NCBI GenBank assembly: GCA_029260875.1
Contig: JAJDCL010000017.1
Span: forward strand, 813 to 64,812
DNA: 64,000 bases
Source of the DNA: Candidatus Saccharimonadota bacterium
GTDB lineage: Bacteria; Patescibacteriota; Saccharimonadia; Saccharimonadales; OFTM59
Reading direction: 5' to 3'
Both the position numbers and the translations under genes were made by a program. Shown here piece by piece: positions 2,676-52,734 of this stretch. Numbering within the stretch: position 1 is the stretch's first letter; each line of letters begins with the position of its first letter. The notes beneath the pieces are model-generated. The model was not told the DNA's origin, made no database searches, and saw nothing but the letters and a program-made list of their open reading frames with translations.

Positions 2676-2706
2676 ACACCGGTACACTTTTATGTTGTCA
2701 AACGCA
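2676..2706. repeat. 31-bp direct repeat, left copy (acaccggtacacttttatgttgtcaaacgca)
   Basis: Perfect 31/31 match to 7627-7657 in the same orientation. The flanking sequences are unrelated. Confidence 0.9.
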
Positions 2707-2926
2707 TTGTCTAACCTGCCCTGACCCTCCACATTACAAAGATGACCAAGATTATGAAAAGACTTGCGTTTGAAACATATTTCTTGGACGTTGGGGGAAG
2801 GTGATCTGTCGGCTCCGTTTAGGAGTTCTCGAAACAGCTTGCATTATTGAATGCATGCATCAAATCATAACCTCAATATTTGTTGCGGGTTGGCCTTATC
2901 TTCGCTGGCTCAGATGGGACTAAATC

Positions 2927-3874
2927 ATGCACGACGAAGTCAACCGATATCTAGTTTTTTGTGACGATGTTCGCTCACTGTCAGGTCACACAATAAGAGC
3001 CTATCAGTCGGATCTGACCATGTTCATCAAATACGCATTTAGTCTTGGAATTAGAACGTCTTCTGAGATCTCAAAAGAGACTGTAAATTCGTTTGTCTCG
3101 TGGCGCAAAGAAACGGTCATCGCATCACGAAAAAGATATCTATCGAGCATTTTGGGATTTTTCAAATGGTTAACTCACGAAAATGTTCTGAAGGCAAACC
3201 CGTGTTCGGGGATAACAATCCGAGACCCGAGGAGGCGAGTATTACCTAAGTTGTTAAGCCGATCTGAAGTAACCAAATTGATTGCATATGCGTCAAACAA
3301 CTGCGCAACTCCGCCTGCCAAAGAGTGGCCGTCAATTCGTGCTGACGAATTAATGACGGATCAATACCGGACAATTATTTGTACGTTGGGATTGAGGTTC
3401 CTATATTATTCCGGAACCAGAATTGGAGAAATGGTGAGGTTGCCTGTTTCCTCGATCGATTTTCGAAAGGGAAGCGTGCTCATTTCCGGAAAGGGCAAGA
3501 AAGAAAGGGTTATCTATTTTTGGGACAAGGCTTTCCAGACTGATCTTCGTCACTACGTCCAACTTAGGAACTCTCTCTCATCGAATGAGGGTGCCTTGTT
3601 TTTGAGACAAGATGGAATACCCGCTTCTGACCAGTTTTTCAGGCGGCATTTTGGGAATTTGGGAAATGAGGCATTAAAAAAGAAAGTAACCCCACATATG
3701 CTCCGCCACTCCTCTGCTACTCACTTACTTGAGGATGGGGTTGATATCCGGGTTGTACAGAGGTACTTAGGCCACGCAAGTATAAGTACAACAGAAATTT
3801 ACACGCACGTTGCAGATGAATTTCTGAGAAAAGAAATGGCGAGAGTGGCACGTAAACGTGCCGCAAGGGCGTGA
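2927..3874 (+). CDS. tyrosine recombinase / integrase (XerC/XerD-like)
   Basis: C-terminal catalytic signature HMLRHSSATHLLEDGVDIRVVQRYLGHASISTTEIYTHV, an earlier GTRIGE box, and an N-terminal core-binding-type domain. Its TGA stop (3872-3874) lies inside the 27-bp inverted repeat. Confidence 0.9.
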   Translation: MHDEVNRYLVFCDDVRSLSGHTIRAYQSDLTMFIKYAFSLGIRTSSEISKETVNSFVSWRKETVIASRKRYLSSILGFFKWLTHENVLKANPCSGITIRDPRRRVLPKLLSRSEVTKLIAYASNNCATPPAKEWPSIRADELMTDQYRTIICTLGLRFLYYSGTRIGEMVRLPVSSIDFRKGSVLISGKGKKERVIYFWDKAFQTDLRHYVQLRNSLSSNEGALFLRQDGIPASDQFFRRHFGNLGNEALKKKVTPHMLRHSSATHLLEDGVDIRVVQRYLGHASISTTEIYTHVADEFLRKEMARVARKRAARA

Positions 3875-3898
3875 TTGATAATTAGGAATTATCTGTTG
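3872..3898. repeat. 27-bp inverted repeat, left arm (tgattgataattaggaattatctgttg)
   Basis: Perfect reverse complement of 7435-7461. It contains the TGA stop of the recombinase gene, then TTG and 7 further codons (MIIRNYLL). Confidence 0.95.
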
Positions 3899-5029
3899 CG
3901 AAGAGCAATATTTGAAGAATTGTTGTCCGGTCTCCACACTTTTGGACCGTACTGCAATGAATGTGGGGTAATTGCAGTAATTAATGTTGTCGGCCTAACC
4001 AACACGACAAAAGATTACGTTGGCTTTAGCGTACAAAACAGTTTCTTAACAGACGACGAGATTGACGAATTCATTAATGGCTGGCGGGCTTTAGGAGTTT
4101 ACGTTCAGCATTTTTCAGAGGAACGCGATTTTATGTCGTGGGTACTCTCTGGCGGATATCAAACGCTTAGAATTGCAAACAAATTTGTTTATACATCAGC
4201 TTTGAATGGAATTGGTCCAGGGCGTCGAGCTCTTATTCCATCTTTTTGTAATTACTTCGGGATTCCGACATTGAATTCGGACCCCTATGCATGTGCGATT
4301 AATCGGCATAAATTTCACTGGACACGCTTGCTCTCCACGTTTGGTATTCCCGTACCTCGAACATGGTGTCTTTCAAGTAATGGCGGCTGGGAAGATGGGC
4401 TAAAGCCTCCACAAGGAACTCAGGTCATCGCAAAGGCGACATACGAGGGCAGTAGTTTGGGTGTAAGTGAGGACAGTAACGGGACATTTGATACTAGACT
4501 TCATGACACCATACGTGAATTGGCGAATACGCTTAATCAACCGATTACCGTTCAGGAATTGATCCCAGGATTCGAGGCCGAAGTTCCCGTTATTTTCTTA
4601 GACAGGCACGTATCACTTGGCACAGCATTTCTCTCTATCAACGGTTCCGTCAATTTAGAGAACACCATTCTCACGTATGACACAGCCGCTGAGAATCTTT
4701 ACAGGTACACGACCGAAACTCACTTGCCAGGTGCTGTGCCTTTAAAGCTGTCGGCGATTGCCGAGCGTGTTGCTGGAATTATGAATTATGAAGGAATAAG
4801 TAGAGTGGACTTCCGAGTCACGAAGAACGGTACGCCATATGTGATCGACATTTCCAGTACGCCTCATTTAACTACAAACAACGCCGTTGGGTTTTTGTTT
4901 ACGCAGGCTGGACTTGAGTATCGTCAACTACTTTCTTCATTGCTATTTTCGACAATTAGAAGTGGAAATTACTGCTACTCGTCAGACCAAAATTCCAACT
5001 CAGATGGTAGAAACCCTCCGCGAAAGTAG
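3875..5029 (+). CDS. ATP-grasp fold ligase (D-Ala-D-Ala ligase-like)
   Basis: VIAKATYEGSSLGVS, VQELIPGFEAEVPV and GISRVDFRVTKNGTPYVIDISSTPHL match the ATP-grasp phosphate-binding, central and Mg-binding segments. It is in the same frame as the recombinase, separated only by TGA. The TTG start lies inside the IR. Confidence 0.7.
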   Translation: MIIRNYLLRRAIFEELLSGLHTFGPYCNECGVIAVINVVGLTNTTKDYVGFSVQNSFLTDDEIDEFINGWRALGVYVQHFSEERDFMSWVLSGGYQTLRIANKFVYTSALNGIGPGRRALIPSFCNYFGIPTLNSDPYACAINRHKFHWTRLLSTFGIPVPRTWCLSSNGGWEDGLKPPQGTQVIAKATYEGSSLGVSEDSNGTFDTRLHDTIRELANTLNQPITVQELIPGFEAEVPVIFLDRHVSLGTAFLSINGSVNLENTILTYDTAAENLYRYTTETHLPGAVPLKLSAIAERVAGIMNYEGISRVDFRVTKNGTPYVIDISSTPHLTTNNAVGFLFTQAGLEYRQLLSSLLFSTIRSGNYCYSSDQNSNSDGRNPPRK

Positions 5030-7458
5030 ATCCAACCTGGACCGACCAAATGAGACTGTTTTGTTGCGGCATATGAAGACCAATCTAATGCCTGGTTTGC
5101 TTCGTGGAATATGCCGGTAATAATTTCGTGGCGCCTCCTATAGTACATTTCGTTTGGACCGATCAGCTCTCCGAGAAAAGTGCCGGCCAACTTCCAGTGC
5201 ACAAGAGCTTGGTCACGATCGCCTAGCATAAATCTGCATCCCGCAATATTATTTTCGACGTAGTAATGGTAAAACCCATCAAAATCGCTCTTCAGCTTGA
5301 GCTGTTTTTCAACAGGAAGAAGTATTTTTAGGGCCCTTTGATATTCGCCTCCTACTGCCATTGCCCATGCAGCGTTGCTGACAATTAGAGATCTATCATT
5401 TGTTAAATCTGATTTCTTTGCCAAGCCGAGGAAATGACTTATCACATCACCTCTAGTTATCTTGCGGGCAAAGTAACCTGAAATTATCAGATTATTGACA
5501 AGAATGTCCATCCGCGGAAATACAAATGTACGATGATTTGAGACAACTTTCTTCCCTTGAAGGGCGGCGGAGTATGCGGATTCAAAATCTCCAGCCACTA
5601 TTCGATTTGCGGACAGATTTGTATGGCCGATGTAGGCGTGAACTGGGTCATAGGTGGGATTTCCCTCAGTAGAGGCGAAGTAGTCAATTGCCTGAAGAAT
5701 TCTCTCACGTGCTACTTCCGATGTGTGTAGCATATTGGCTTTCAGCCTGATACGGTTCAATAAATCGTTAGAGCTAGGATCGAAACCGAATCTTGCTTTC
5801 AATCTTTTCATAAGCAACCGCTCTGCACGCGCGGCCCTCGTTGTGTCTCCAAGAAAAAAGCACGCCACTATATAGTAAATCATCACCCTCCCCCAAACCT
5901 CAAACTCCTGAAGATCAACCTCAGCCCAGATGCTAAGGATCTCAACAGCGTTGCGTCTGTTAAACAAAGTAAGCAGCTTTATGTGGCTTCGAGCTTTGAG
6001 AATATCTCGTTCCGCGAGGAGCGAATCGGTGTATAAGTCCTCTACACTGTCTAGGAATATAAGCGCTTTTCTGTACCTCCCTGTATTGAAAGAGCACCAT
6101 GCTTGATTCATTTTCTCCAGAAATATCTTGATGCCAGGCACTAGTCCAAGAGTTGTAGCACTTATATCTACTTTCCTCCCGGATCTTTGTTCACTCAAGA
6201 AATCCAAGGCAAGAGCCTCAGAAACTCTCTTGTGGTCTTTCGCCTGACCAAGATGATAAGCGCGTCGTCTATATTCTCCTGGGCTAAGCAAACGTAGACA
6301 CTCTGCGAATTTCATGTTCTGTTCCACATGCCCAGCTTGGTTCTTTGTGAAAAAGAAATCATGAATCAACTCATGCGAAAAACGTCGTTCATTTCCTGAT
6401 TCAATAACTAATCTCATTGTCTGTGCAGGCCTCAAGATTTCTCGTATGTTCGAAATCGATAATTCGGTCAAGCATGAAAGTTCATTCTCAGAGAACGTCT
6501 GGCCGATAATTGAAGCCGATCGGAGTATGCTAATTGTCGAGTCGGCAGGCAATCGAAGTCCATGTAGGCGTTGCTCGATGAGTTCTTTTAAGAGGAAAGT
6601 CTTGTCAATTGATTCCTCGTCTAACAGTTGTGTTCCTTCAATAGCGTTTTTGCCCAATTGACGTGCAAATTCGAGGTGGCCACCGCATATACGATACAGA
6701 TCCTTAGGTAGGCTGGAGCCCGACCCAAATTGCAATCCGAAATCCCTCAGAATCTTCTCGAAGTATTCCTCGCTACAGAATCCCAGGCGGTAAGTCGCTT
6801 TGCAGTGCTTCTTTAGGAGGTCATTCATGATAATTGGTTCAGAAACTGGGCAGTCTTCGGTATCTACGACGAGAACAACCATATTTGCCAACTGAGGGAA
6901 AGCAGCATGTACTACCTTTTCGAGCATCATCGAAAGTAGCTCAAGTGACGCTTTGTCCCACCATTGGATGTCGTCACATATCAACAAGAGTCGCTGATTC
7001 TTGGCCAGAGAGCAGAGTTTAGCTAGTAGCCCTCTTTCAGTTTCAGAAAGGAACGGTGCCATAGACATTCTTCGGCGATCCGGGCTCTTCGATATATAGT
7101 GGAGTAGTTCACGGATGATTTTGCCAGCTAAAGGCAATGCTGCAGTCGATTCAATTATTGTGTTTTTTGCTGCATTCAATTGCTGACGTGCACTCTCGGA
7201 TACTACGGCTAAGTGTAGTGCATAAAAACTTCGATGACTCTGAATTTTGTCGCCTAAAGAGAATAGCGAAGAGCCGATATTTTCTTGCCATTTCTTTGCC
7301 AGAGCGTGCGCTAGCCAACTCTTGCCTGCTCCGCTTGGTCCAGTCAGTCGCATTAAAAGCCGTTTATTGCTTGAAAGCCTGCTGAATATTTCAGAGAGTA
7401 TTTCTGTTTGACCGGTAAGATCAGCTACTGAATCCAACAGATAATTCCTAATTATCAA
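4975..7458 (-). CDS. STAND/AAA_16-type NTPase with a long C-terminal helical (TPR-like) repeat region
   Basis: Walker A LTGPSGAGKSWLAHALA and Walker B LLLICDDIQWWD, followed by about 550 aa of helical repeat-like sequence. The TTG start and first 8 codons (MIIRNYLL) lie inside the right IR arm. Its 3' end overlaps the ATP-grasp gene by 55 bp. Confidence 0.7.
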   Translation of the reverse strand: MIIRNYLLDSVADLTGQTEILSEIFSRLSSNKRLLMRLTGPSGAGKSWLAHALAKKWQENIGSSLFSLGDKIQSHRSFYALHLAVVSESARQQLNAAKNTIIESTAALPLAGKIIRELLHYISKSPDRRRMSMAPFLSETERGLLAKLCSLAKNQRLLLICDDIQWWDKASLELLSMMLEKVVHAAFPQLANMVVLVVDTEDCPVSEPIIMNDLLKKHCKATYRLGFCSEEYFEKILRDFGLQFGSGSSLPKDLYRICGGHLEFARQLGKNAIEGTQLLDEESIDKTFLLKELIEQRLHGLRLPADSTISILRSASIIGQTFSENELSCLTELSISNIREILRPAQTMRLVIESGNERRFSHELIHDFFFTKNQAGHVEQNMKFAECLRLLSPGEYRRRAYHLGQAKDHKRVSEALALDFLSEQRSGRKVDISATTLGLVPGIKIFLEKMNQAWCSFNTGRYRKALIFLDSVEDLYTDSLLAERDILKARSHIKLLTLFNRRNAVEILSIWAEVDLQEFEVWGRVMIYYIVACFFLGDTTRAARAERLLMKRLKARFGFDPSSNDLLNRIRLKANMLHTSEVARERILQAIDYFASTEGNPTYDPVHAYIGHTNLSANRIVAGDFESAYSAALQGKKVVSNHRTFVFPRMDILVNNLIISGYFARKITRGDVISHFLGLAKKSDLTNDRSLIVSNAAWAMAVGGEYQRALKILLPVEKQLKLKSDFDGFYHYYVENNIAGCRFMLGDRDQALVHWKLAGTFLGELIGPNEMYYRRRHEIITGIFHEANQALDWSSYAATKQSHLVGPGWIYFRGGFLPSELEFWSDE

Positions 7459-7461
7459 TCA
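7435..7461. repeat. 27-bp inverted repeat, right arm
   Basis: caacagataattcctaattatcaatca is the exact reverse complement of 3872-3898. Confidence 0.95.
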
Positions 7462-7472
7462 AAACTACGAAT

Positions 7473-7481
7473 ATTCTATCA
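7473..7481 (-). promoter_or_regulatory. candidate extended -10 element (TGaTAGAAT) reading into the right IR arm
   Basis: The minus strand reads tgatagaat, 14 nt upstream of the TTG at 7458. I saw no clear -35 or Shine-Dalgarno. Confidence 0.25.
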
Positions 7482-7619
7482 CAGAATTTGGGTATCCATA
7501 ATTAGTTTCGAATTGTGACTTAGTTCCCAAATCACCACTTTTTGTGCGATACACATTTCGCTCGTTATTGGCTCCTTAGAGTAACGGCTGTCTTTTTTAA
7601 CCTAGGTGGGACACTTTTA

Positions 7620-7770
7620 CATGATCACACCGGTACACTTTTATGTTGTCAAACGCACTTGGTTTACGACTTTGTCGGGCGCTATCACCACACACCACAC
7701 AAAGGCTTGGCCGGTTACACACCCCACCAAGCTTCTATCGGCGACTGGATTCAAGCCTTTCACCACCGCC
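7620..7770 (+). pseudogene. remnant of a DDE (rve-type) transposase C-terminus
   Basis: Translation ...LVYDFVGRYHHTPHKGLAGYTPHQ resembles the YNxxRPHxxLxGxTP tail of IS481/IS3-type integrase-fold transposases. No upstream catalytic domain is present. Confidence 0.4.
7627..7657. repeat. 31-bp direct repeat, right copy
   Basis: Perfect match to 2676-2706. It lies within a DDE-transposase C-terminal remnant. Confidence 0.9.
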
Positions 7771-8515
7771 AGCGTTCCTTGGATGACTCTTACCGAAGCC
7801 ACTCTTCACGATTTGCCTATCCACGACTCGCGAAACCCTTACCCAATCACGTCTCAATCAATATCCGACAATTAGTGCACAACGAACAACTCAGTGGCCC
7901 GAACATACATACCCTTTTGGAGATCCAGTAGTTCACACCCCAAAAATCAGCCCAGAATCCATCTCTACACATATGGGCAAAAATGCAAGTTTGGGGCGAG
8001 TTGGTTCGGAGAAACGCGCTCAAAGAAAAACGTGGTTTGTCAATTTGAAGCAAGCGATCGTTGAATAACCGTCGATTAGGCTTAGCGACTTAATGTCAAA
8101 AATTTTCAAGCAAAATTATGGGCCTATGGGATCACCAATCTACGGCGAGCCAATAGTACCAACTGTTTAGGGGCGAAGTCATGTAAAAGAATTTCCAGTT
8201 TCATAATGGTCCATAACTCTAATGGGATAGGTTGAATCAACGACATTAGGCAGATTTCGACGCATCGGCACCCAAAATGTGGTCATCGAAGACTATTTAC
8301 GTCGGACACGCCAACTGTTTGTAGACGGTGTTAACACCGCCAAACACAAGGAGTGTCATTATGCTAGAAAATCTGATCCTAATACTTAAGCTTGTCTACT
8401 TGGTTGAGAGCGTTTGGCAGATCTACTGTCGCGTCAGAGCGAAACGAAGGGCAAATGAAGAAGAGAGCAAAGTTCAAAATCCGGGAATCCTCTCAAGCGA
8501 CCGAACCCCCCAATG

Positions 8516-8985
8516 TGTCTCTACCCCGAATCGAAGGACAGTGTAAGTTTTATGCGGCGGACCTAGCGATTGCTTGTTCATATTCATTGGGCGAGATGTC
8601 GCCCAATGAATGATGGATTCGGATCGGGTTATAGAACCCTTCGATGTAGTTAAATACAGCATGCTTGGCCTCAAGACGGGTTGCGTATTGCTGGCCGTAG
8701 ATCATTCCGTTTTCATAGAGCCAAAGAAGCTTTCCATTGGCGCATTATCCCAACAGTCGCCCTTCGCACTCATACTTTGTTTGAATCCCCACCCTTTGAG
8801 TTTCATACGCAAGGCGTAGCTCGCGTATTGGCTTCCACGGTCGCTGTGGAAAATTAGGCCTCTACCCGGGCAACGCCTCCGATACGCCATATTCAAGGCG
8901 TCTATGACCAGTGACTGAGTCATTCTTGGTTTCAGTGACCATCGACATTTCAAGATCATCGTTGGCTGTTTCGTCCGCATGCCAC
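8516..8985 (-). mobile_element. IS3-family fragment: 3' part of orfB plus terminal inverted repeat
   Basis: The terminus TGTCTCTACCCCGAATCGAAGGACAGTG at 8516 recurs at 14401. The coding remnant is listed separately. Confidence 0.75.
8550..8980 (-). pseudogene. IS3-family transposase OrfB, 5'-truncated and frameshifted
   Basis: [10 protein letters not shown]...[23 protein letters not shown], then a stop. A shifted frame continues [43 protein letters not shown]...AA*. Confidence 0.8.
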
Positions 8986-10039: not shown

Positions 10040-11632
10040 TCACTCGACGGTGCCTTGACCTATCTGCGAAGCACTCGCGGCCGTCTGTCGACCGTGGCCA
10101 GTGGGATACCACACGTCGATATACTTTTGAATCGAGGATGACCACAATTTGATTATCTTCTCATGGATCGGTGTGGCCGTAGCGTCAATATGCTTGCTGT
10201 ACAAGTAACAGGCATGATCACAAGATTCCGACTCGAAAGCATCCCACCCGATTCTTTCGAGTCGACTCAGTCTTGCAAGGACGACGATTTGTCGCTGCCC
10301 AAGTACATATGTCACGATCATCTCCCATTTTGGCAGGTTTCTGACACTTGGAGTTGCGGTGATCGTGAGGTCACGCCAAGGCCCTTCTTCGGTACGTGAA
10401 AACGAAATCACACTGCTTGATTTTTGATACAACGCTTGAATAAACAAATTTCGTATCGATTGCAACCGATAAGCAAGAGTGGAGTCTCTTCTGACTTTGG
10501 CGCGCAAACGGTCGACTTCTTTGTCCGATAATCTATTTCCAGCAACATCTACGTAGAAAGACTCTCTCTTGAGCTTCAAGAAAAGTTTTGGGATGTCATT
10601 GTCCTGAAACCACTGGCAAAAGTAAGAATCACCATAAATCAAAGAAGCGGACTGGTCATCTATTGACAAGTCGTAACACGACGCAATTTCGCTTTCAAGC
10701 CGTAAAGAATCGAAGTTACTTCTTAGCACCGACAAGTAATTGTTCGCTTCATCTTGCTTAAAGTACATCTGTTCATCGTGGTGGATTCGCGATGTTATCG
10801 ACGGAGCTTCGTGTTGGTCTTCGCTTGGCAATTTTACGCCGCCTATATAGGGTATCAGTGCATTGCGCAATTCAATGGACACTGGTACGAATTCCACATT
10901 TATGTCGCTCTGGCACACCCAATGAGGAGTTTGCGAGTATTTTTGAAATTTGTCTTGAAGTGATTTTACTAAATCTGGGTACGTGAGTGAGTCCTCTACA
11001 AAGGTGGCAACACTATCTACCAGGTGATGCGTAAATAGAGAAAGTTGATTAATACCGTCCGGAGGGTAAGGGCCACTTGAACCCTGGTCCCACCGCGACG
11101 AGGAAAGGAAATACAAGGAATCAAGAGCGGGTGAAGGATCGTTTCGAAGATCTCCTCCCCTGAAATGGTCTGTACCCTTGATATAGTTTGTTCCACAGAA
11201 ACAGGAATCGATTATACGGCAATAAACCTTTGGCTGAACGACACGTATCCAATCGTCAAGTTCAGTTAAGCTGATTGATGTCGACCTTTCACGGTCATAA
11301 ACAAATTGCCGTAGTGCGAAAGCGTATTCATTGTCGACACGCGTTCCATGTCCCGATAGATAGATGACAATGTCCCCTACGTCCTGTTTTAGATACGCAT
11401 GAAGAAATCCCCGAACTTCCTTTTTCACGCTTGGCGCTGATTTCAAAGTATCTGGTACCAATATGTTTTCCTCTGAGTACTTCCCCGAATGGACCAGCAA
11501 GGTTTTCATCGCCTTCACATCGTGATTGCAGAACGGCAGATCGATCTCGTGGTCATACTTTGAGACACCAACAAGGACACCTATATTCACGTTAACTCCA
11601 ATAGTCAATTGTACTAATTTTTCACAGGACAA
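10040..11632 (-). CDS. caspase-like (peptidase C14) protease with an uncharacterised C-terminal domain of about 330 aa
   Basis: VGVSKY...HDVKAM, a catalytic His context IVIYLSGHG and a catalytic Cys context RIIDSCFCG, in the order and spacing of the caspase/metacaspase fold. Confidence 0.7.
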   Translation of the reverse strand: MSCEKLVQLTIGVNVNIGVLVGVSKYDHEIDLPFCNHDVKAMKTLLVHSGKYSEENILVPDTLKSAPSVKKEVRGFLHAYLKQDVGDIVIYLSGHGTRVDNEYAFALRQFVYDRERSTSISLTELDDWIRVVQPKVYCRIIDSCFCGTNYIKGTDHFRGGDLRNDPSPALDSLYFLSSSRWDQGSSGPYPPDGINQLSLFTHHLVDSVATFVEDSLTYPDLVKSLQDKFQKYSQTPHWVCQSDINVEFVPVSIELRNALIPYIGGVKLPSEDQHEAPSITSRIHHDEQMYFKQDEANNYLSVLRSNFDSLRLESEIASCYDLSIDDQSASLIYGDSYFCQWFQDNDIPKLFLKLKRESFYVDVAGNRLSDKEVDRLRAKVRRDSTLAYRLQSIRNLFIQALYQKSSSVISFSRTEEGPWRDLTITATPSVRNLPKWEMIVTYVLGQRQIVVLARLSRLERIGWDAFESESCDHACYLYSKHIDATATPIHEKIIKLWSSSIQKYIDVWYPTGHGRQTAASASQIGQGTVE

Positions 11633-11740: not shown

Positions 11741-12847
11741 CTAAAGTTGGTACAAGATAACTAGGAAAATGAACCCTGCAATCAGTAGAGTCGCACAACC
11801 TGATTTATTGGTCGACCTTGCAATAGATTTGCTAACTTGCAGTAATTCACGGTTCCAATTTACTTCCCAATTGTCTGGAACATCGAATACGATCGAAATC
11901 GTCTCACTACGAGCCTCCGCACCATCCTCGACGTTGGCGTTCATCCTTGCTATTTGGTCAAGTTGATCAGCTAAATCAGCAACCTTGTTAGCATGAACGC
12001 TAGTTGTATCGCGAAGCAACGCCAATAGTCTTTGATAATTATCCGATACCAACACAAATCGCACAGACTCCTCGAAGTTGATAACTTGTTCAAACCAGCG
12101 ACCGATCAGACATGTAGTATGACGAATTTCGTCAGCATCTCCCGGCTCTCCAGGCAATCCCCAGCTGTTGTTCAAGCGCGTAAAGAGTTTAGTAATTGGG
12201 GTTATCATTTCCGATAGCTGAGATAACCGACCACGGATCCACGTCAACGCATTGTCGTCTTCTATAGGTATTTGCGGCTTCACATAATATCCTCCACGTA
12301 GGTCATGTAGCCGTCTTATGAGCGGACTGTTGTAGTGACGCATTAATTCGGCCGTCAACCTATATTCCCATGCAACTGGTTTATCAATGATGATTCGTCG
12401 AATAAGCGGTGGGAACTCCATGAATTGAGATAGTTGAATGGACAATTCGTCCTTGAGGATACGATCAGTGGCATTGCCTAACTCCGACAGAACGTATACT
12501 TCATGTGACTCTCGCCAGGTAAACAGTACAAAGGCCGAGTAATGGTTTTCTGAGTCAATAAGCTTATGGCAGTTTCGACACAACCAAAGTCCATTTGTTA
12601 TGTCCGCACGAGATTGATCGGTCATATTGGGATCAAATCTCATTGCGTTGGGACGTGCCCCAAAGATATGGGCAGCCTCACCAATCAACGTTGCCTTTGT
12701 CGGTATCGAGTTGGGCCCAACGGTGGTGACTCGGCAATCAGGATTTGAACACCTAAATGCTGCCCGCTTTGCGAGAATGTCAATTGTACTTTTGTTAAAA
12801 TCAGGATACATTGCGGAAATTCTACATCGTAAATGTAAGTAGACCAA
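11741..12847 (-). CDS. HNH-like nuclease-domain protein with a C-terminal transmembrane anchor
   Basis: CSNPDC...GEAAHIFGARPN...NGLWLCRNCHKLID (Cys4 HNH pattern) at the N-terminus, a helical middle region and a terminal TM helix (ATLLIAGFIFLVILYQL). The start is possibly ATG 12811 (MYPDFNK). Confidence 0.6.
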   Translation of the reverse strand: MVYLHLRCRISAMYPDFNKSTIDILAKRAAFRCSNPDCRVTTVGPNSIPTKATLIGEAAHIFGARPNAMRFDPNMTDQSRADITNGLWLCRNCHKLIDSENHYSAFVLFTWRESHEVYVLSELGNATDRILKDELSIQLSQFMEFPPLIRRIIIDKPVAWEYRLTAELMRHYNSPLIRRLHDLRGGYYVKPQIPIEDDNALTWIRGRLSQLSEMITPITKLFTRLNNSWGLPGEPGDADEIRHTTCLIGRWFEQVINFEESVRFVLVSDNYQRLLALLRDTTSVHANKVADLADQLDQIARMNANVEDGAEARSETISIVFDVPDNWEVNWNRELLQVSKSIARSTNKSGCATLLIAGFIFLVILYQL

Positions 12848-14271: not shown

Positions 14272-14400
14272 TAGGCCCAGTGTCCCCTAAGCCGCGATAG
14301 CCGCCAATCCTCAGACTAAATTTGTCTCCCAGTTCAGTCTCTTATACATCTGAGCAGATAACACTAGAGTAAATGTGACTCAGCACAGAATCCATCTCTA

Positions 14401-14554
14401 TGACTCTACCCCGAATCGAAGGACAGTGTAAGTTTTAGGCGGCCACTTCAACGGTTAATCTTGTATTCATTTCCAGCACAAATATTTCATAAGGATTCAC
14501 ATGGGAGTACATCAGCGGCGTCAATGCTCTGAAGCCTTCCATTTCTATTCCAAT
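14401..14554 (-). mobile_element. second IS3-family terminal fragment (terminal IR plus a short coding tail)
   Basis: 14404-14443 matches 8519-8558 (34 bp perfect, 39/40 overall). The terminus begins TGACTCTACCCCGAATCGAAGGACAGTG. Confidence 0.6.
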
Positions 14555-16034: not shown

Positions 16035-16440
16035 TCAAGGAAAATGCGTTGTTTGCAGAGGCACGATAGTTTCCGGGTTGAGGATCTGGGTTTGTCGATT
16101 CGCGCTCTCAAGTGAAATGTGAGTCAGGTCCTCGTGCCAGACTACCCACCTGTTAAGGATACTACACGCCGTTAAATTTTGTGCATTGCTCAGGTCGCTT
16201 TTAACTGTTGAGAGGGTACGGCTCCCTCCGAGGCTCATCAGATAGGCAGGAATCACTCCTGCCGATGATAGGGAGTCGTTGATGAGCTTGGCTCTTGCTT
16301 CGGCTTTCAGAATATCCGTCTTATTCAGCCGTGATTTCACTTCGATCCATGCGCGGACACCTTCAAGGAAGAATCCCTTGTCATGATCTGTAAAGGACAA
16401 GAGTGGAAAGCGAGCATCATAGATCACAATGTCGTATTGG
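16035..16440 (-). pseudogene. 5'-truncated gene fused behind the truncated tnpA (possible PD-(D/E)XK-like fragment)
   Basis: The reading frame continues out of the tnpA junction. YDIVIYD...EGVRAWIEVKSRL has a D...E.K-like pattern. Weak. Confidence 0.25.
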
Positions 16441-17517
16441 CCTGCATCGACACTGATCAGCCTCAATGGCGGCGAACGGATCTGTTCCGGTCTGCTTGGC
16501 TTGTAGCAAGGCTCGCCCGATCCGTGAGTAGAGTCGCACCTTGTCGTTGATCGCTCTGCCGTCTTTGTGAAACCGTTCGACATGGCGGCGTTTCGCGCGG
16601 CTAAAGAGAGCGCTGAGCACGCGACCGTGGAGATCGATTGTCTCGTCGATCAGTGTCGCCTGTGTGTCGAGCGTGATCGCGACTAGGGTGGCGTAGCGCC
16701 GAATAGGCTCCAGGTCACGAAGGTGCTGGGCAGTCATCTGCCCTCCTTCGCGGGCAAGCTTGAGAAGTCTGTTCTGGTGGGCAGCATGTTGCAAACCATC
16801 AGGTAAGCTGATGTCACGAATTACCTCAAGGCGCGAGATATGGGCGAGGATATGCTTGGCATTCGGCGGTCCTGGAGACTGGCGCAGCCAAGCGAGACTA
16901 CTCACTTTGGAGTCATCGCGTATCGACAGCAAACTGTCCAGAGCGCGGCAGTGGTGTTCTGCCAGCGGCTCAGTCAGGGCTTCGTAGACCAGGCGAGTGC
17001 CAAGTGTCAGGGCTTCAGCACAGAGGCGGTCGATTACATCGACCCCGGGTATTATAATGTGCTGTTGACGCAGCATCTTCACCATGGCTACAGCAAGCAC
17101 GATACCGCGGTCAGTTTGCTGGGCCAGCTCGGAAAGCCGGTCCACCATGCAACGGTAATCGAACTGACTAAAGGTCGACAGATTAAGCCATGCCTGTAGC
17201 TCGATAAGATGTTCACGCCGCGTTTCCGCCCGCTGCGCGTATTGTTGCCAGATAGACACATCCACGCCCAACTGCATAGCGACCAGTGCAAGCAAGGAGG
17301 CTGGTGGTTCTGCGTCGGTCGGTAGTGAGGAGCCGGGATAGCGCAAACAGCAGAGTTGCACCGCAAACCCAAGTCGGTTGTGGCTCCCGCGTCTTTGGCG
17401 GATCGTTGACAGATCGGATTCGGTGAACGAGTAGTAGCGGATCAAATCATCGTCGGTTGTCGGAAACGCCAGTATCATTTCTCTCTCAGCAGCGTTGAGC
17501 AAACGTCGGCGGGGCAT
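16417..17517 (-). pseudogene. tnpA: Tn3-family (Tn21-like) transposase TnpA, N-terminal about 360 aa only
   Basis: MPRRRLLNAAEREMILAFPTTDDDLIRYYSFTESDLSTIRQRRGSHNRLGFAVQLCCLRYPG is the DUF4158 N-terminus of Tn3-family transposases. The DDE domain is missing. This patch is visibly more GC-rich than its surroundings. Confidence 0.85.
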
Positions 17518-29616: not shown

Positions 29617-32742
<3,126 letters not shown>

Positions 32743-34242: not shown

Positions 34243-34591
34243 GCCTTGAGAACGATCGAAGAGGCCGAAATTTACCGCGTACGACCCGTTTGCTCTGCCG
34301 CCAGGTAAATGGCCCAAATGGAGCGTTCGCGCAAAAACGGCAATTCACCGCTACAAATGTTTTAGAACCAAGAGTTGCGTGAAAAAACAATCTGGACGTC
34401 GGATTCTTAAGTTGTTTAAATCCAGCATCTTCAGTCGCTCCAGAAGTTGTCGAATCTATTCGAGGAAAGATCGGTGTATCGAATGGTGTGACGGATCTCT
34501 CGATGACCCAGATACAACTGGATGGCTCTTGTGTCTTGTCCATCATTCGCAAGCTTGTATCCGGTTGCGTGACGCAACATGTGAGGATGGA
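34238..34591 (-). pseudogene. probable 3'-terminal remnant of a Tn3-family tnpA, cut by the nested transposon
   Basis: The minus-strand ORF ends inside the IR, as Tn3-family tnpA genes do, with ...RGKFRPLRSFSRP*. The upstream part is replaced by the insertion at 34592. The call is mostly positional. Confidence 0.4.
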
Positions 34592-34690
34592 AGGGTGCCA
34601 CGAACATTCGTGCGTAAATATACGCTAAGGATTATCGCCCCCCTCCGAAAAAGAGTGGAACAACACGGATGCCCCGGTAATCATCTGGCT

Positions 34691-35320
34691 TTACGCAAGA
34701 TTCGACATGCTTTCTTTAATTGACCTTTTTTTGATGTAGGTGTTAAGACCAATATGGTTGGAATACCCCAGCACCTTTGAGATTTTTCTGACAGAGAGCC
34801 CTAAGGCAAGGAGCTCTTTTATCCTTTCGAGATCGTTGTCGAACTTGCTCTTCTGAATGGTCCCTTTCGGTTTGCCGAGTCTTATTCCTTGTTTCCTTTT
34901 CGAGGCTAACGCCTCCTTGGTACGCAAGCTGACAAGGTCCCGTTCTAGTTCACCGAACAGTGAAAAGAGTGTGACGATGATTTTTGAGCTCATGTCGTGC
35001 TTGCTGATGTCGAGGTTCTGTTTGATGATGATGACGCGAATGTCCCGGTCAATTAAACCGTTCACCAGAGAAAGGACTTCGGCGGTGCTTCTCCCGAGGC
35101 GGCTAAGCTCCGTAACGATTAGGGCATCCGACCCGCTGAGTCGTTCAAGTAGGTCGTCGATTCGCCGCTGCTTACTCGTCATTCTTGAGGAGACGGTGAT
35201 CTGGATGAACTCGTCGATCTTGAGGTCTTTCTTCCTTCCGAACTCTAAGATCTCGAGCTTTTGGTTATTGAGGTCCTGCTTGCCCGTTGACGCCCTTAGA
35301 TAAGCTACTGTTTTTCCCAT
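34691..35320 (-). CDS. tnpR: serine recombinase / resolvase TnpR
   Basis: MGKTVAYLRASTGKQDLNNQ..., LSRLGRSTAEVL and a C-terminal HTH (RKISKVLGYSNH). Confidence 0.9.
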   Translation of the reverse strand: MGKTVAYLRASTGKQDLNNQKLEILEFGRKKDLKIDEFIQITVSSRMTSKQRRIDDLLERLSGSDALIVTELSRLGRSTAEVLSLVNGLIDRDIRVIIIKQNLDISKHDMSSKIIVTLFSLFGELERDLVSLRTKEALASKRKQGIRLGKPKGTIQKSKFDNDLERIKELLALGLSVRKISKVLGYSNHIGLNTYIKKRSIKESMSNLA

Positions 35321-35341
35321 ATCTCCAGTCCGTAAAGACAT

Positions 35342-35452
35342 AATGTTTAAAACTGCTGGTAATTATACACGACAAGTATCATTTATAGAGTCTTATTGAT
35401 ACCTATTCTGTGTATATAATAACGTTCGTTTTTTCTTATACAATCACGGACC
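35342..35452. promoter_or_regulatory. probable res site / divergent promoter region
   Basis: AT-rich intergenic region between the divergent tnpR and tnpA. It contains aacgttcgtttttt, which recurs in palindromic form at the relic near 50456. Confidence 0.45.
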
Positions 35453-38362
35453 ATGAAATCGCTGAACTTCACCCATGAACACCTTCTAAATCAGGCCCAA
35501 TTCACAAAGAAGGACACTGACCGGATATTCCAATGCAGACGGCAGCATAACCGGCTTGGGTTTGGGTACCAAATCGCATTCGTCCGGCTCGCAAATCGAT
35601 TCCCAATCCAGCAGCCATTCGAGATTGTTACCGAAATCCTGACTTATGTCAGCGTTCAGCTCAGTATCCCCAGCACGGCTATTGGCGTGTACTCCAAAAG
35701 GCAGGCTACTATATCCGACCATCAGGATGCGATCCGCAAATTCCTTCACCTGTCAAGGTTTGCGGGAAAGAAGACCAGGGAGACTGTCCGGAAGTTTGTG
35801 TTCGACACCGCATGCCGACTGGAACAGGCTGGGGCGCTTATCGCTAAGACGGAGCAATACCTGAAGGAAAAAAGAATACTCCTGCCATCCGATGACACCA
35901 TGCGGCGGCTTGTTGCAACTCAGCGCGAGGAGGCCAAGCAGTCCATATATATAAGGATAGAGAACTCACTTTCAAAGGAGAATAAGCAACCCCTGGACGC
36001 ACTTCTAGAGACCTGGGAAAGCCGAACCAGCGGAATCCAGATATTGAAACAGGCTCCAGGCCGTCCCAGCCCAACGGCGATGCTTCGCCTCACAAAGAAT
36101 ATCGACGAGATTCAAAAAACCGGGGTTCTTGATCTCGATCTTTCGTGGCTCAACAACAACTTCCAGCGAGCTCTGTCCCGGTATGCAAAGCGATGCACCG
36201 CATCGCGGCTGCGGAAACTTGAAGAGACCCATCGCCATGCTGTTCTTGTCTGTTTCCTCTGGCAGACTTACCGGGATACCGTCGACTTCATGGTGGATAT
36301 GTACGATAAGCTGATAAATCGGATCTACAATCACGCTCAGAACGACATCGACAACCATAACAAGTCGCAGCGAAAGCAAATTCGGCAGTCATTGAATACA
36401 TTTGCGATCATGGCTGATCTCGTCCTCGATGAATCCGTAACTGACTCAGACCTGAGATCCGAGCTGTACCTTCGAGTTGAGCGGGAGAAGCTTGAGTATC
36501 AGATGGCCGAAGTTAGCGTATGGCTCAAGGGGAAGCACAGCCATGTGTTCAACCTAGTGAAGGACCGATTCGGCTACATTCGACAGTTCTCTCCGATGCT
36601 GCTGAAGCATCTCCAGCTCATGTCTGAAAATGAAACGGATGCCGGTGTGATCAAGGCCATGGACGTGCTTCGTGTCCTCAACGAAAACCACAAGCGCAAG
36701 CTGCCGAACAATGCTCCAATGGAATTCATCCCAAAGAAGATTCTGTATTTAGTCGAGTCGGACGGTGTGGTGAACAAGGCGGCCTGGGAATGCGCACTAT
36801 TGACCGCCATTAGGGACGAGATTAAGTCGGGCAACGTGTCTGTCCACTCAAGCAAAAGGTTCGGAAGATTAGACGACTTCTTCATTCCAGAAGAGAGCTG
36901 GGCAACGAAAAGAGAATCGTTTTTTAGAAGGGCGGGGCTACCATCCGACAAGTCTACCGTTGCGGCCTTCCTAGCGAGGACATTGAACGATGCTTATGAA
37001 GATTTTCTGAAAGCTCTCCCGAGAAACGCATTCGCTTCGGTGACCGATGACGGATGGCACCTTTCCTCCGACGGTGCTGAAAAGCTAGACCATGAATCGG
37101 AAACCAAGCTTGAATCGCTGAAGAGCTGGCTCGGCGAGAACATGAGGCTCATCAAACTGCCCGAGCTACTCATCGAGGTCGACAATGAACTCAAGATCAC
37201 ACGAACCTTCATGCCAACGTCGCAGCAGGACGGAACAAACCCAGAAGAGATCTGTACGATCCTGGCAACAATAATGGCTCATGGATGCAACATTGGACCA
37301 TACACGATGTCCCATCTCACAGGGATTAGCTATGGGCGGATCAAGCACGTTACCGACTGGATGATAACCGAGGACAACCTTCGCGGGGCTCTCGCCCAAG
37401 TGGTGAACGCAATTAGTAACCTGGACATCACCCAGTCATGGGGAACTGGAAAGACGTCAAGCAGCGATGGGCAGCGTTTTGCGTTGAAGCACAAAGTGCT
37501 CCAGCAAACATACAGTCCAAAATTCAATGATTTCGCGCTGGAATTCTACTCTTTCGTCGCGGATAACTATGCGCCCTTTTACAGCCTACCCATTGAGTGC
37601 ACCGATCGTGATGCCCCGTTCGTGCTCGACGGGCTCCTTTATAACGAAAGCGACCTTGAGCTTGAAGAACATTACGTGGACACCCACGGATACACCGAGA
37701 ATAACTTTGCGGCTTTCGCAATGCTGGGGAAGCGGTTTTCACCGAGGATCAAGGGCCTCCACAAACAACGGATCTACCGCATCGACAGAGATTTCGACTA
37801 TGGACCGCTATCATCGCTCGTGGCTCGGAGTGACCGCACGATCCACATGGATTGGATTGTTGATCAGTGGGACAGAATCGGCCATTTCTATGCGTCACTC
37901 GAATCTGGGCATTCGACTGCTTCAACGGCCATGAAGCGTCTGAACGGGTTTTCTGGTAAGAACCACTTTTATCGAGCGAACCGCGAGCTCGGGCGGGTCT
38001 TCAAGTCCGCACACATCCTCCAGTACATGTCTGATATCGCGTTGAGGCGAAGGACACGACGAGGACTTCTGAAGGGAGAGCAGCTCCACGGGCTGGCCCG
38101 GGACCTGAACTACGGTAAAAGAGGACGAATCAGTAAACGTGACTTGCAGGAGCAACGAAATTCATGCAGCTGCCTCACACTCATCCTTGCATCCATTATT
38201 TACTGGCAGGCAAAGGAGATAAATCGGGTCGTTATCGAATGCGATCCTGAGAAAACCGGGATAGATCTGAAGCTCGTAGAGCACATCAGCCCAATCGCTT
38301 GGGAAAACGTAATTCTATATGGTGAATACATCCTGAACCGTGACCTGGTAATAATCTCTTAG
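35453..38362 (+). CDS. tnpA: Tn3-family transposase TnpA (full length, 969 aa)
   Basis: DUF4158 N-terminus (RRQHNRLGFGYQIAFVRL) and a DDE_Tnp_Tn3 C-terminal domain (SSSDGQRF, VDTHGYTENNFA, ISPIAWENVILYGEY). Confidence 0.95.
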   Translation: MKSLNFTHEHLLNQAQFTKKDTDRIFQCRRQHNRLGFGYQIAFVRLANRFPIQQPFEIVTEILTYVSVQLSIPSTAIGVYSKRQATISDHQDAIRKFLHLSRFAGKKTRETVRKFVFDTACRLEQAGALIAKTEQYLKEKRILLPSDDTMRRLVATQREEAKQSIYIRIENSLSKENKQPLDALLETWESRTSGIQILKQAPGRPSPTAMLRLTKNIDEIQKTGVLDLDLSWLNNNFQRALSRYAKRCTASRLRKLEETHRHAVLVCFLWQTYRDTVDFMVDMYDKLINRIYNHAQNDIDNHNKSQRKQIRQSLNTFAIMADLVLDESVTDSDLRSELYLRVEREKLEYQMAEVSVWLKGKHSHVFNLVKDRFGYIRQFSPMLLKHLQLMSENETDAGVIKAMDVLRVLNENHKRKLPNNAPMEFIPKKILYLVESDGVVNKAAWECALLTAIRDEIKSGNVSVHSSKRFGRLDDFFIPEESWATKRESFFRRAGLPSDKSTVAAFLARTLNDAYEDFLKALPRNAFASVTDDGWHLSSDGAEKLDHESETKLESLKSWLGENMRLIKLPELLIEVDNELKITRTFMPTSQQDGTNPEEICTILATIMAHGCNIGPYTMSHLTGISYGRIKHVTDWMITEDNLRGALAQVVNAISNLDITQSWGTGKTSSSDGQRFALKHKVLQQTYSPKFNDFALEFYSFVADNYAPFYSLPIECTDRDAPFVLDGLLYNESDLELEEHYVDTHGYTENNFAAFAMLGKRFSPRIKGLHKQRIYRIDRDFDYGPLSSLVARSDRTIHMDWIVDQWDRIGHFYASLESGHSTASTAMKRLNGFSGKNHFYRANRELGRVFKSAHILQYMSDIALRRRTRRGLLKGEQLHGLARDLNYGKRGRISKRDLQEQRNSCSCLTLILASIIYWQAKEINRVVIECDPEKTGIDLKLVEHISPIAWENVILYGEYILNRDLVIIS

Positions 38363-38511
38363 CGTATATTTACGCACGAATGTTCGTGGCACCCTGTCAT
38401 AGGATCCAGTGAGATGTACAACTCAACCATCGGACGTGATAATGGAATACAGGCCGTTATGCGAGTCGCGGGCTCGGCCCCAATTGACGAGGACTGAGCT
38501 TAATCGATCGA

Positions 38512-46800: not shown

Positions 46801-46952
46801 TCGGTGAAGACTTGGACCAGTGAAGGAGACACGTCGGGAAAGGCATCCACTGGGAGCTGTTTGTAGCTTAGCAGTCCTGATACCATCACAAGGGCGCCCA
46901 GCACAATGATCAGTAAGCGATTGTGAAGGACAAAATGAATTAATTTTTCCAT
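43854..46952 (-). CDS. heavy-metal efflux RND pump (CusA/CzcA family)
   Basis: 1032 aa with RND architecture. The TM4 motif here is GGLAIAIGMMVDGTIVITEN (AIG..DGT..TEN), different from the DFG..DGA..VEN of the first pump. Confidence 0.9.
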   Translation of the reverse strand: MEKLIHFVLHNRLLIIVLGALVMVSGLLSYKQLPVDAFPDVSPSLVQVFTETEGLSPEDVEKYVTYPIETAMNGLPDLEKIRSVSNFGLSVVNVYFKDGTDIYFARQVLNERLQEAKDQIPEGFGEPVMGPISTGMGLVLFYYLEDKNGSHSLEELRTIQDWLVKFHLQTVPGVTEILGIGGWEKQYHVNIDPSALLRYDVTINEVIEKIKANNLNVGAQFIEKDAEEFIVRSVGLTSNMEEMKHIVIKTLDGTPVFLNQLGTVGIGGAVRRGVQTRNGVEEVVAGMVIKLFGTNSSTVIGQVEEKLTEINSILPDGIEIVPYYEQKTLINACVATVTNALIQGIVLVIIVLMVFMGGFRPSIVVALSIPFSVLFATLSMHFFGISANLMSLGGLAIAIGMMVDGTIVITENIDRWLRMSSAGDRRVYVIAKACAEVARPILFAISIIIIVFLPLFTLQGVEGKTFRPLAYTVALAMLGSLIFAIFLSPVVASFLMKRPDKKEDKASNEDAFIVRLMMKPYKPLVGFFVKRRYLAVVLAGTLMLIGGLIFPRLGAEFTPELQEGTIVVRLTMAPSISLNESTKVTMLVEKRLTAIPEVTGAVTRIGRGEVGAHTDPINSAEIYVLLKPRDQWQRTQTQEGLREIIRDELGDIPGVLTNFTQPIAMTVDELLEGVRAELAIKLFGADLAELKKKADEIAAVVREVEGAADVQADQVSGTPQLRITVDRQAIARYGINVEDVQNVIRTAVGGETAGQIFEGIRRFDIFVRFDKKARDSVSVIRQILITSPIGTKVPLDQLASIEEIIGPRQITRENNQRFITVQCNVTGRDIVSFVEDAQNAIDAGVDLPPGYLVTWGGQFKLQQQANRRLSVVVPITLLIVFLLLFSSFNSLKNSILILLNIPLALVGGVVALWLTGQNLSVPASVGFIALFGIALENGMVLVTYLNQLLRNGVSLDVASVQGACLRLRPVLMTAITTALGLIPLLFSSGTGSEVQRPLATVVVGGLVTSTILTLLVVPALYKWFAVPVEKEK

Positions 46953-50199: not shown

Positions 50200-50461
50200 G
50201 AAAAACAACAGACACTCCTCCCGTCGCATTATTATACGAAAAAACGGGAACATCGTTGAACAAATTCTGAGTGGCAGTGACGAATTTGGGGTAATCCGGC
50301 TCAAAAAGGGAGCAAATCGTGGAATGATGCATAGCCCACGCTGTCAGCCCTGGAATCCTTGATAACGACGTAGACTTGCCTTTAAAAGTGGAAACATTCC
50401 ACGGAACCCAACGATCAGCTTGGTGTCCTGGGGGTTCGAGACAATTAGGAAAAAACGAACG

Positions 50462-50537
50462 TTTTTCCTAATACAATCACGGACCATGAAATCGCTGAAC
50501 TTCACCCATGAACACCTTCTAAATCAGGATGTCATCC
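50462..50537 (+). repeat. relic of a Tn3-family res/tnpA 5' junction
   Basis: 50480-50537 is 58/58 identical to 35438-35495 (including the tnpA start MKSLNFTHEHLLNQ). The preceding about 18 bp are similar but diverged. Homology stops abruptly at 50537. Confidence 0.85.
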
Positions 50538-52289: not shown

Positions 52290-52734
52290 GTTGCGTATTT
52301 CCTTTCATTAACATATCTTCATCAAATGCCCCGAGGATGGGGCATTCGCTGGTTGGTTTATCGTCTCCACTACAGGCTTCAACCAATTCTTCGAGCTTTT
52401 TCTGTATCCTCAGTAGGTTGTTTATTCTCATTCTCACATCTGCAATTTTGGTTTCGGTTTGTTTTTTGACATGAGCACAAGAGGCGTTCGCACCGAGTTT
52501 TAGGGATAGCAATTCATCAATCTCCTTGAGTGTGAAACCGAGATCTTTGGCCCTTCTTATGAATTTCAATCGCGCAACAATGTCTTCTGGATACTGACGG
52601 TAGCCTGATTTGCGGCGTGGCGGCTCCTCAATTAGCCCCTTTCGCTCATAAAAACGAATGGTCTCTATTCCTATGTCTGCCAGTTTTGCCACTTCTCCGA
52701 TTGATAATGTGGCTATTTTCGCCCAACGCCGCAA
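52273..52734 (-). CDS. MerR-family heavy-metal-responsive regulator; 5' end replaced by an IS terminus
   Basis: LSIGEVAKLADIGIETIRFYERKGLIEEPPRRKSGYRQY (MerR HTH), a coiled-coil, and C-terminal Cys residues (ASCAH, EACSGDDKPTSECP). Codons upstream of TLSIGE lie inside the IS inverted repeat, and the only available start there is TTG 52734. Confidence 0.7.
   Translation of the reverse strand: MRRWAKIATLSIGEVAKLADIGIETIRFYERKGLIEEPPRRKSGYRQYPEDIVARLKFIRRAKDLGFTLKEIDELLSLKLGANASCAHVKKQTETKIADVRMRINNLLRIQKKLEELVEACSGDDKPTSECPILGAFDEDMLMKGNTQHDSET

Follow-up and report, generated by a model that had tools for sequence, protein, structure and literature searches.

Within a window of 64,000 nucleotides from a Candidatus Saccharimonadota bacterium (the whole stretch analyzed here, from contig JAJDCL010000017.1), we studied a two-gene cassette that lies next to a gene for a tyrosine recombinase, hereafter REC. 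A perfect 27-nt inverted repeat (TGATTGATAATTAGGAATTATCTGTTG) brackets two convergent genes, encoding an ATP-grasp ligase and a STAND-type P-loop ATPase, in a 3.56-kb segment located directly 3′ of the intact recombinase gene (Table 1). A previous reading, made from the letters of the window alone (the sequence-only reading), had pointed out this repeat and named the three genes. Indeed, the repeat was found at both positions and nowhere else in the window, and Pfam matches bore out the names recombinase, ATP-grasp and STAND. Allowing up to 3 mismatches still gave only these two matches in 64 kb, and shuffled sequences are expected to give 0. The same reading had noticed that the recombinase TGA lies inside the repeat, of which it is the first 3 nt. 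A TTG (3875-3877) follows directly and opens the maximal ATP-grasp open reading frame (ORF; 3875-5029, +). The maximal STAND ORF spans 4975-7458 (-), and both ORFs start with LIIRNYLL.

Table 1. Features of the recombinase gene, the cassette and the repeats around them, in window coordinates
Feature	Position	Strand	Description
Recombinase REC	2927..3874	+	315 aa, Xer-like tyrosine recombinase, presumed invertase
Left arm, 27-nt inverted repeat	3872..3898	+	REC TGA 3872-3874, core, ATP-grasp TTG 3896-3898
Recombination core, 16 nt, GATAATTAGGAATTAT	3877..3892	+	dif-like ATAA-N7-TTAT
ATP-grasp ligase, Ddl-like	3896..5029	+	377 aa from second TTG; REC-proximal in window orientation
STAND-type P-loop ATPase	4975..7437	-	820 aa from second TTG; distal in window orientation
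Cargo 3′-end convergent overlap	4975..5029	.	55 nt, ATP-grasp ...SSDQNS... opposite STAND ...EFWSDE*
Right arm, 27-nt inverted repeat	7435..7461	-	core 7441-7456; STAND TTG 7437-7435
31-nt perfect direct repeat, left copy	2676..2706	+	brackets REC and cassette
31-nt perfect direct repeat, right copy	7627..7657	+	just upstream of rve-type transposase C-terminal remnant

REC matched Pfam Phage_integrase (PF00589, 1.6e-36) as well as SAM_1. It has the catalytic domain of tyrosine recombinases (lambda-integrase fold) together with their R-K-H-R-H/W-Y residues, and in an alignment R165, K189, H257, R260, H283 and Y292 were invariant across 11 site-associated relatives. Its scores remained below the equivalog cut-offs of XerC (200.6 versus 335 bits) and XerD (198.8 versus 330 bits), and judged by these matches it is Xer-like and not an XerC or XerD orthologue. 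Its relatives are distant, the best one being 40% identical. An integron origin was rejected, since the integron-integrase model integrase_gron scored far under its cut-off (127 versus 265 bits) and the sites are 16-nt cores, not attC.

The two cargo genes are unrelated in sequence family. The ATP-grasp protein matched Pfam Dala_Dala_lig_C (4.7e-16), and its nearest solved structures are D-Ala-D-Ala ligases (1e-17). Its relatives form ~35 clusters among 5.8 billion proteins, at 38-52% identity, and Logan contigs of 3.55-3.64 kb, the length of the cassette, carry many of them. The STAND protein has an AAA_16 domain (4.8e-13) followed by a helical repeat region, with a weak NB-ARC match, and a search by sequence gave no solved-structure relative. 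Within the nearest clade, the ATP-grasp protein keeps a C-terminal SSDQNSSS motif, whose codons lie opposite those for the STAND C-terminus ..EFWSDE; farther out in the family, the cargo 3′ ends overlap by only 0-22 nt. Incidentally, the ..EFWSDE end fits FxSxx-COOH and the STAND N-terminus weakly matches NCBIfam FxSxx_TPR, which may be a coincidence. PADLOC returned no match for REC, ATP-grasp or STAND. A phage origin of the cassette was rejected, as the phage collection held no specific relatives of the ATP-grasp protein.

Both orientations exist in nature

Genome and metagenome scans returned 28 loci. The hosts, among them cultured isolates, include Alpha-, Beta- and Gammaproteobacteria, Actinobacteria, Chloroflexota and Firmicutes. 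The 16-nt core of the repeat was found just upstream of the ATP-grasp gene in nearly all loci with a full ATP-grasp relative, and an inverted copy of it just upstream of the STAND gene where the contig extends far enough. Four pairs of contigs caught the segment in its two states. The 8155 nt that lead up to the site are 100% identical in L007 and L017, after which the same DNA is reversed, REC being followed by STAND in one and by ATP-grasp in the other. L013 and L014 are identical inward from the first base of the core, and their outer flanks are unrelated. In L024, the distal flank is joined to ATP-grasp, while in L008, a 96% identical locus from the isolate Tahibacter aquaticus DSM 21667, it is joined to STAND; L024, which is without the recombinase, shows the inverted state of the L008 lineage. 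Last, L011 and L029 share a 100% identical flank that is joined to ATP-grasp in one and to STAND in the other. Complete isolate plasmids also display the two arrangements, REC then ATP-grasp in pMRAD01 of Methylobacterium radiotolerans and REC then STAND in a Paenibacillus plasmid. Where the recombinase points at the cassette, the proximal gene is ATP-grasp in most assemblies and STAND in L007 and L037. Collectively, these data show that both orientations exist in nature, with breakpoints at the repeats. We also noticed, at 1675-4765 of L007 and L017 (a Limnocylindrales-type contig), a second, decayed cassette ~3.4 kb upstream of the active copy, in which the ATP-grasp gene is intact and the STAND gene lies in frame-shifted pieces.

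For the window lineage itself, we turned to Logan k=31 contigs of identical DNA. Two such contigs from SRR15505513 span exactly 2677-3901 and 3872-7464, and one from SRR15505512 spans exactly 2677-3898. The former two overlap by 30 nt, that is, k-1, which indicates that the break is a branch of the graph and not a gap in coverage. A 27-nt repeat alone is unable to branch a 31-mer graph. When a de Bruijn graph was simulated with one orientation only, a single unbroken unitig of 2677-7656 was obtained. Adding the k-mers of a flank::repeat::ATP-grasp junction gave exactly 2677-3901 and 3872-7464, and adding those of a REC::repeat::STAND junction gave exactly 2677-3898. The Logan contigs begin at 2677 because of the 31-nt direct repeat. 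This evidence, indirect but specific, points to the presence of both orientations in the sequenced populations of the window lineage.

The sequence-only reading had proposed a recombinase-linked invertible segment, and this proposal is now backed by the orientation pairs in four related lineages and, indirectly, by the assembly graph in the window lineage. As it had anticipated, inversion leaves all three ORFs intact and swaps which complete gene sits directly behind the recombinase. It had also looked to homologous loci for both orientations and for a repeat that always covers the junction between recombinase stop and cargo start. There, both orientations are found and the repeat is kept, but the junction is not universal, the recombinase being divergent from the cassette in L014, L021 and L042.

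Core site, translation starts and varied cargo

A logo of the core was built from 44 distinct sites at >25 loci, one or two of which are probably chance matches. The consensus, GATAAYTRGGAWTTAT, is 16 nt long, with ATAA and TTAT kept at 43-44 of the 44 sites and separated by 7 nt of consensus YTRGGAW. This layout is dif-like, with palindromic inner arms flanking an asymmetric centre, and it is this asymmetry that makes inverted sites give inversion. The 7-nt central region would be the crossover region. The centre is also purine-rich (AGGA, GGGA or AAGGAG), and it is predicted to serve as the Shine-Dalgarno sequence of the cargo gene. In the left arm of the window, AGGA (3884-3887) lies 8 nt upstream of the TTG at 3896; the Firmicute version of the site carries GGAGG 3′ of the core, still within the repeat. 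Start and Shine-Dalgarno positions were scored at roughly 40 sites. At most of these, the cargo start codon lay between 2 nt before and 7 nt after the end of the core, and a Shine-Dalgarno-like motif was present inside the core. The REC stop abuts the core or lies within it wherever the recombinase points toward the cassette.

According to the sequence-only reading, the repeat also encodes seven codons after a first TTG, and the two products, of 384 and 827 aa, share the peptide MIIRNYLL. These figures are right for the maximal ORFs, both of which do encode LIIRNYLL, but they probably do not describe the products. At most sites in relatives, a stop codon within or at the core interrupts the cargo frame. 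No exact match was found for the maximal-ORF products of 384 and 827 aa, and the deposited products begin at the second TTG, at 377 aa (Logan) and 820 aa (NCBI and Logan). An alignment of 32 members of the ATP-grasp family begins at the second TTG as well. Hence, the shared peptide is probably not translated, and translation probably begins at the second TTG, where the repeat has its inner end. The repeat would then supply the REC stop, a Shine-Dalgarno sequence and a start codon, and no peptide.

Several annotations around the site deserve mention. In the NCBI annotation, the ATP-grasp protein of the window (P0122) begins at an internal ATG and has 298 aa. The PGAP start of a Phaeobacter AAA ATPase (L042 817-4023) is upstream of the core, so that the annotated coding sequence crosses the core. 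At L038, a degenerate core, GAAAATTAGGAATAAT (7984-7999), lies one base upstream of the recombinase's own ATG; its arrangement of site, Shine-Dalgarno and start matches that of the cargo genes.

The recombinase and the core were also found with other cargo. Among the five nearest recombinase relatives looked up (36-40% identity), all five had the core at their stop codon and three had an inverted partner site around a different cargo. The cargo is an unknown protein and a FAD/lycopene-cyclase-like protein in L033, a TIR protein and a methyltransferase in L039, and a family-2 glycosyltransferase and a 1202-aa AAA_16 STAND ATPase in L040/L041. At L038, it comprises a UbiA prenyltransferase, the contig ending before any second site, and at L034 the cassette is interrupted by insertion sequence (IS) elements. 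On plasmid pP66_d of Phaeobacter inhibens, a site pair encloses genes for an AAA ATPase and a HAD hydrolase at one end and for two glycosyltransferases at the opposite end, with the recombinase divergent from the cassette. L012 (6136-12553) holds two adjacent site-bounded cassettes 94 nt apart, among genes for SHMT, a sigma factor and a phytoene synthase-NUDIX protein, and no recombinase was found in the 14 kb fetched. Its second cassette has two ORFs with CrtYc/Yd-like lycopene-cyclase domains, facing a 500-aa and 219-aa pair of unknown function. As negative controls, Xer-like recombinases of similar identity were found without the core in Bradyrhizobium and Marinovum (L043, L044). By these comparisons, the window locus appears to be a member of a widespread family, in which the same recombinase and core come with varied two-ended cargo.

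The proposed switch, its alternatives and its precedents

We consider it likely that the locus is a site-specific inversion switch, in which an Xer-like recombinase flips a two-gene segment between inverted dif-like sites and so swaps transcriptional inputs. REC, the putative catalyst, would recombine the inverted sites (core GATAATTAGGAATTAT) by strand exchange in the 7-nt centre, and the 3.56-kb segment with its ATP-grasp and STAND genes would be flipped. Since the site carries the ribosome-binding sequence and then the start, each cargo gene would have an identical translation-initiation region in either orientation. What inversion would change is the upstream context, one cargo gene being placed behind the recombinase and the other facing the outside flank. 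In the window, the REC-proximal cargo start lies 21 nt after the REC stop. As this gap leaves no room for a promoter of its own, the proximal gene is most simply viewed as co-transcribed with REC, and it would probably be translationally coupled to it. The distal gene would depend on the outside flank. Inversion would thereby exchange the transcriptional inputs of two unrelated genes, and we infer that it alters cargo expression.

Several observations weigh against this scheme. No promoter was identified on either side, a scan for sigma-70 promoters and terminators having given fewer matches than shuffled sequences. The distal flanks of related loci share no motif, and neither a conserved fourth gene nor a promoter motif was found in the distal flank across loci. 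In ~8 of 10 loci, the nearest gene of the distal flank reads into the cassette, so that transcription may reach either position, and inversion may exchange one transcriptional input for another instead of turning genes ON and OFF. It is also not evident why reciprocal regulation would suit an enzyme and a STAND ATPase, which look like partners. As for the recombinase, a sublineage (L011, L012, L018 and L029) inverts, and no recombinase was found in its available sequence, which covers 6 kb leftward and 1.7 kb past the second cassette in L012, and 2.3 kb in L029. The divergent recombinases of L014, L021 and L042 mean that co-transcription with the recombinase is not universal. Last, inversion of the exact window locus rests on assembly-graph break points, the window assembly itself showing a single orientation.

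A different view is that the inverted sites serve mainly for mobility, as in the exchange of pdif-like modules between replicons in Acinetobacter, and that inversion is incidental and has no regulatory meaning. It would explain that unrelated cargo is flanked by the same core, that such modules turn up in different phyla, on plasmids as well as within mobile or defence islands, and that two site-bounded modules lie side by side between housekeeping genes in L012, where 14 kb of sequence showed no recombinase; inverted Xer sites also delimit pdif modules (PMC6449649, PMC9947245). Yet, we hold this view to be unlikely. Start codons lie within a few bases of the core, with Shine-Dalgarno-like motifs, at most of the ~40 scored sites, most complete cassettes have the 5′ end of a cargo gene pointing outward on either side, and the recombinase stop abuts the core. 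Mobility alone would not impose such constraints on stop, Shine-Dalgarno and start. Moreover, most loci have a dedicated recombinase, and no module was seen on a new backbone. The two roles are compatible and may coexist.

The model as first written, with starts at the first TTG (3875 and 7458), a shared MIIRNYLL and a choice between the recombinase operon and an outside promoter, appears very improbable. Both frames are open from the first TTG in the window, and an AAGGG lies 5 nt upstream of it at the recombinase junction, but this AAGGG is absent at the distal junction. The closed frames of relatives contradict it, as do the gene callers and the 32-member alignment, which favor the second TTG with its AGGA 8 nt upstream within the repeat. 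The extended -10-like element, TGTGATAGAAT, which it took as the outside promoter, has no conserved counterpart at other loci, and nothing in the promoter scan exceeded chance. Finally, it is scarcely credible that the segment is an assembly artefact or a static relic that no longer flips in the window lineage, an idea in line with the single orientation of the window and the indirect evidence for its lineage, because contigs of two runs end exactly where the alternative junctions would be in a k=31 graph that the 27-nt repeat cannot branch, the repeat is perfect and the catalytic residues are intact, four independent contig pairs break exactly at the site, and the assemblers named in contig titles (e.g., k141) finish with a k that exceeds repeats of 21-27 nt, which makes misjoins at these unlikely.

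The inversion switch that we favor was then compared with known systems. Its closest counterparts are vpma of Mycoplasma agalactiae (Xer1) and vsp of M. bovis (Mbr), in which inversion links complete silent ORFs to one promoter, with sites in the 5′ untranslated region and an adjacent Xer-like recombinase (PMC2268961). Both share with our cassette the adjacent Xer-like recombinase and sites in the 5′ leader, just upstream of the start of each complete ORF. There, however, the genes are paralogues for surface lipoproteins, several per locus, with one mapped promoter, whereas the single segment of the window cassette carries an enzyme gene and an unrelated gene for a STAND ATPase. In addition, the core here doubles as Shine-Dalgarno sequence and abuts the recombinase stop, and the family spans at least 4 phyla with varied cargo. 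The sequence-only reading was not aware of any described switch that exchanges complete, unrelated genes through a shared N-terminal coding repeat; vpma/vsp switching shows that whole-gene exchange as such was already known, and it is the swapping of two unrelated genes that appears new.

Among the Xer-type systems, pdif sites are 28 bp long with a 6-bp centre, are acted on by host XerC/XerD and are not known to have a fixed relation to start codons. The cassette differs by its 7-nt centre, its dedicated single recombinase and a site locked to stop, Shine-Dalgarno and start, and it does not conform to a 28-bp XerC-6-XerD site served by host XerC/XerD. Both systems have modular cargo and adjacent modules, as seen here in L012, and both have inverted Xer-type bounds with palindromic inner arms ATAA...TTAT (PMC6449649, PMC9947245). 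Integrons resemble the cassette in that a tyrosine recombinase stands beside promoterless cargo whose expression depends on position. Here, in contrast, there are no attC hairpin sites, and the cargo is inverted in place instead of being excised and inserted.

Convergent alternative genes inverted by an adjacent recombinase are familiar from the G segment of phage Mu (Gin), the C segment of P1 (Cin) and the R64 shufflon (Rci). Gin and Cin are serine invertases. All of these swap C-terminal parts of one family (tail fibres, PilV), with the repeat in the constant N-terminal coding part. In the cassette, no coding sequence is exchanged and the repeat ends at the start codon, so that it does not fit a C-terminal exchange. 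In the broad sense, the segment is an inverton: inverted repeats flank it close to a recombinase gene, and natural populations have both orientations, which switch at the repeats. It shares short inverted repeats, a nearby recombinase and mixed orientations with promoter invertons (fimS, Bacteroides capsule promoters, C. difficile cwpV) and with gene-altering inversions (PMC9881135, PMC10028968). In those systems, inversion turns a promoter or terminator around, recodes a gene or shuffles paralogues, whereas in the cassette it moves two entire, non-homologous genes, and the ribosome-binding sequence is part of the sites. A survey of such inversions tied repeats to pairs of coding sequences, with at least one repeat strictly inside its coding sequence, and ATP-grasp proteins were unmentioned (PMC9881135).

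Neither the core sequence nor the combination of ATP-grasp, STAND and recombinase was found described in the literature searched, which omits some journals. The switch family is thus apparently undescribed, and what appears new is that the swapped genes are unrelated, that the core is a ribosome-binding site, that it is fused to the recombinase stop and that varied cargo occurs in multiple phyla. Programmed inversions are mostly known from host-associated bacteria, as promoter flips or shuffles of paralogous surface and specificity genes. The present family would extend them to soil, freshwater and marine bacteria of several phyla, with a design in which unrelated genes change transcriptional context while their coding and initiation sequences stay unaltered. 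It also suggests that modules with STAND, TIR and enzyme genes in defence islands undergo phase variation. Standard inverton finders, made for short segments, and searches for paralogue shuffling would miss such switches. The switch would account for the recurrent assembly breaks that give cassette-sized contigs, and it flags a systematic mis-annotation of start codons around the site. The compact recombinase and site pair may be usable in synthetic two-state switches. Cultured hosts are Tahibacter aquaticus DSM 21667, Methylobacterium radiotolerans JCM 2831, Phaeobacter inhibens P66 and Paenibacillus sp. IHBB 10380.

A broader proposal, which we advance tentatively and hold to be slightly more doubtful than not, is that these loci form an unrecognised cross-phylum class of compact gene toggles, in which a ~300-aa Xer-like recombinase and a 16-nt core, both crossover and ribosome-binding site, reciprocally re-wire two unrelated genes. 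If true, the pair would typically oppose a small-molecule- or envelope-modifying enzyme to a STAND ATPase, and soil and marine bacteria would have phase-variable, two-state defence or envelope functions. As to what the cargo does, the CapP, SAVED/HNH-like nuclease and caspase-like neighbours, with the TIR and STAND cargo of relatives, suggest a role in defence or in modification of the cell envelope, which is a conjecture.

Flanking DNA and neighbourhood

The recombinase gene and the cassette are together enclosed by the perfect 31-nt direct repeat of Table 1, which the sequence-only reading had overlooked. The two copies delimit a 4951-bp unit, and a degenerate copy lies at 7608-7630. Just downstream of the right copy is the C-terminal remnant of an rve-type transposase (..LVYDFVGRYHHTPHKGLAGYTPHQ..). 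The direct repeat bears no obvious similarity to the core by inspection, and the right-flank ORF gave no plasmid match. It may be an att-like scar or a partial duplication. An integrated element bounded by these repeats, with REC as its integrase, was not supported as a feature of the family, since direct repeats flanking the cassette were absent in 9 of 11 related loci. Scans of the window for tRNA genes and Rfam families found nothing, which leaves no tRNA-type att site. The 27-nt arms were likewise rejected as terminal inverted repeats of an IS element or a miniature inverted-repeat transposable element, in view of the lack of a transposase inside, the conserved content and the conservation of the site beside the recombinase.

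The window as a whole is a mobile mosaic of Tn3 transposons, efflux genes and defence genes. A protein of the window groups with one from an Acidobacteriota MAG. Upstream of REC, a CapP-type M78 peptidase is encoded at 867-1679 (PADLOC capP, 1e-46). Downstream of the cassette, two genes on the minus strand at 10040-11632 and 11741-12847 are defence-island neighbours, with a caspase-like Peptidase_C14 protein and a match to a SAVED-HNH / PDC-M68A endonuclease effector. Two Tn3-family transposons (34587-38400 and 52711-55978) have 43-nt terminal inverted repeats that are 95% complementary, and carry transposases with DUF4158 and DDE_Tnp_Tn3 domains at 35453-38362 (+) and 52755-55859 (-); a third, truncated DUF4158 ORF spans 16417-17517. 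Between and around the Tn3 transposons lie RND efflux pumps (29626-32742 and 43854-46952) and a P-type ATPase (41335-43518). Two further direct repeats were noticed. One, of 59 nt and 85% identity, has its copies 5.9 kb apart (8500-8558 and 14385-14443). The other, of 78 nt and 94% identity, has its copies 15 kb apart (35418-35495 and 50451-50528); it begins just upstream of the Tn3 transposase gene and takes in its first codons.

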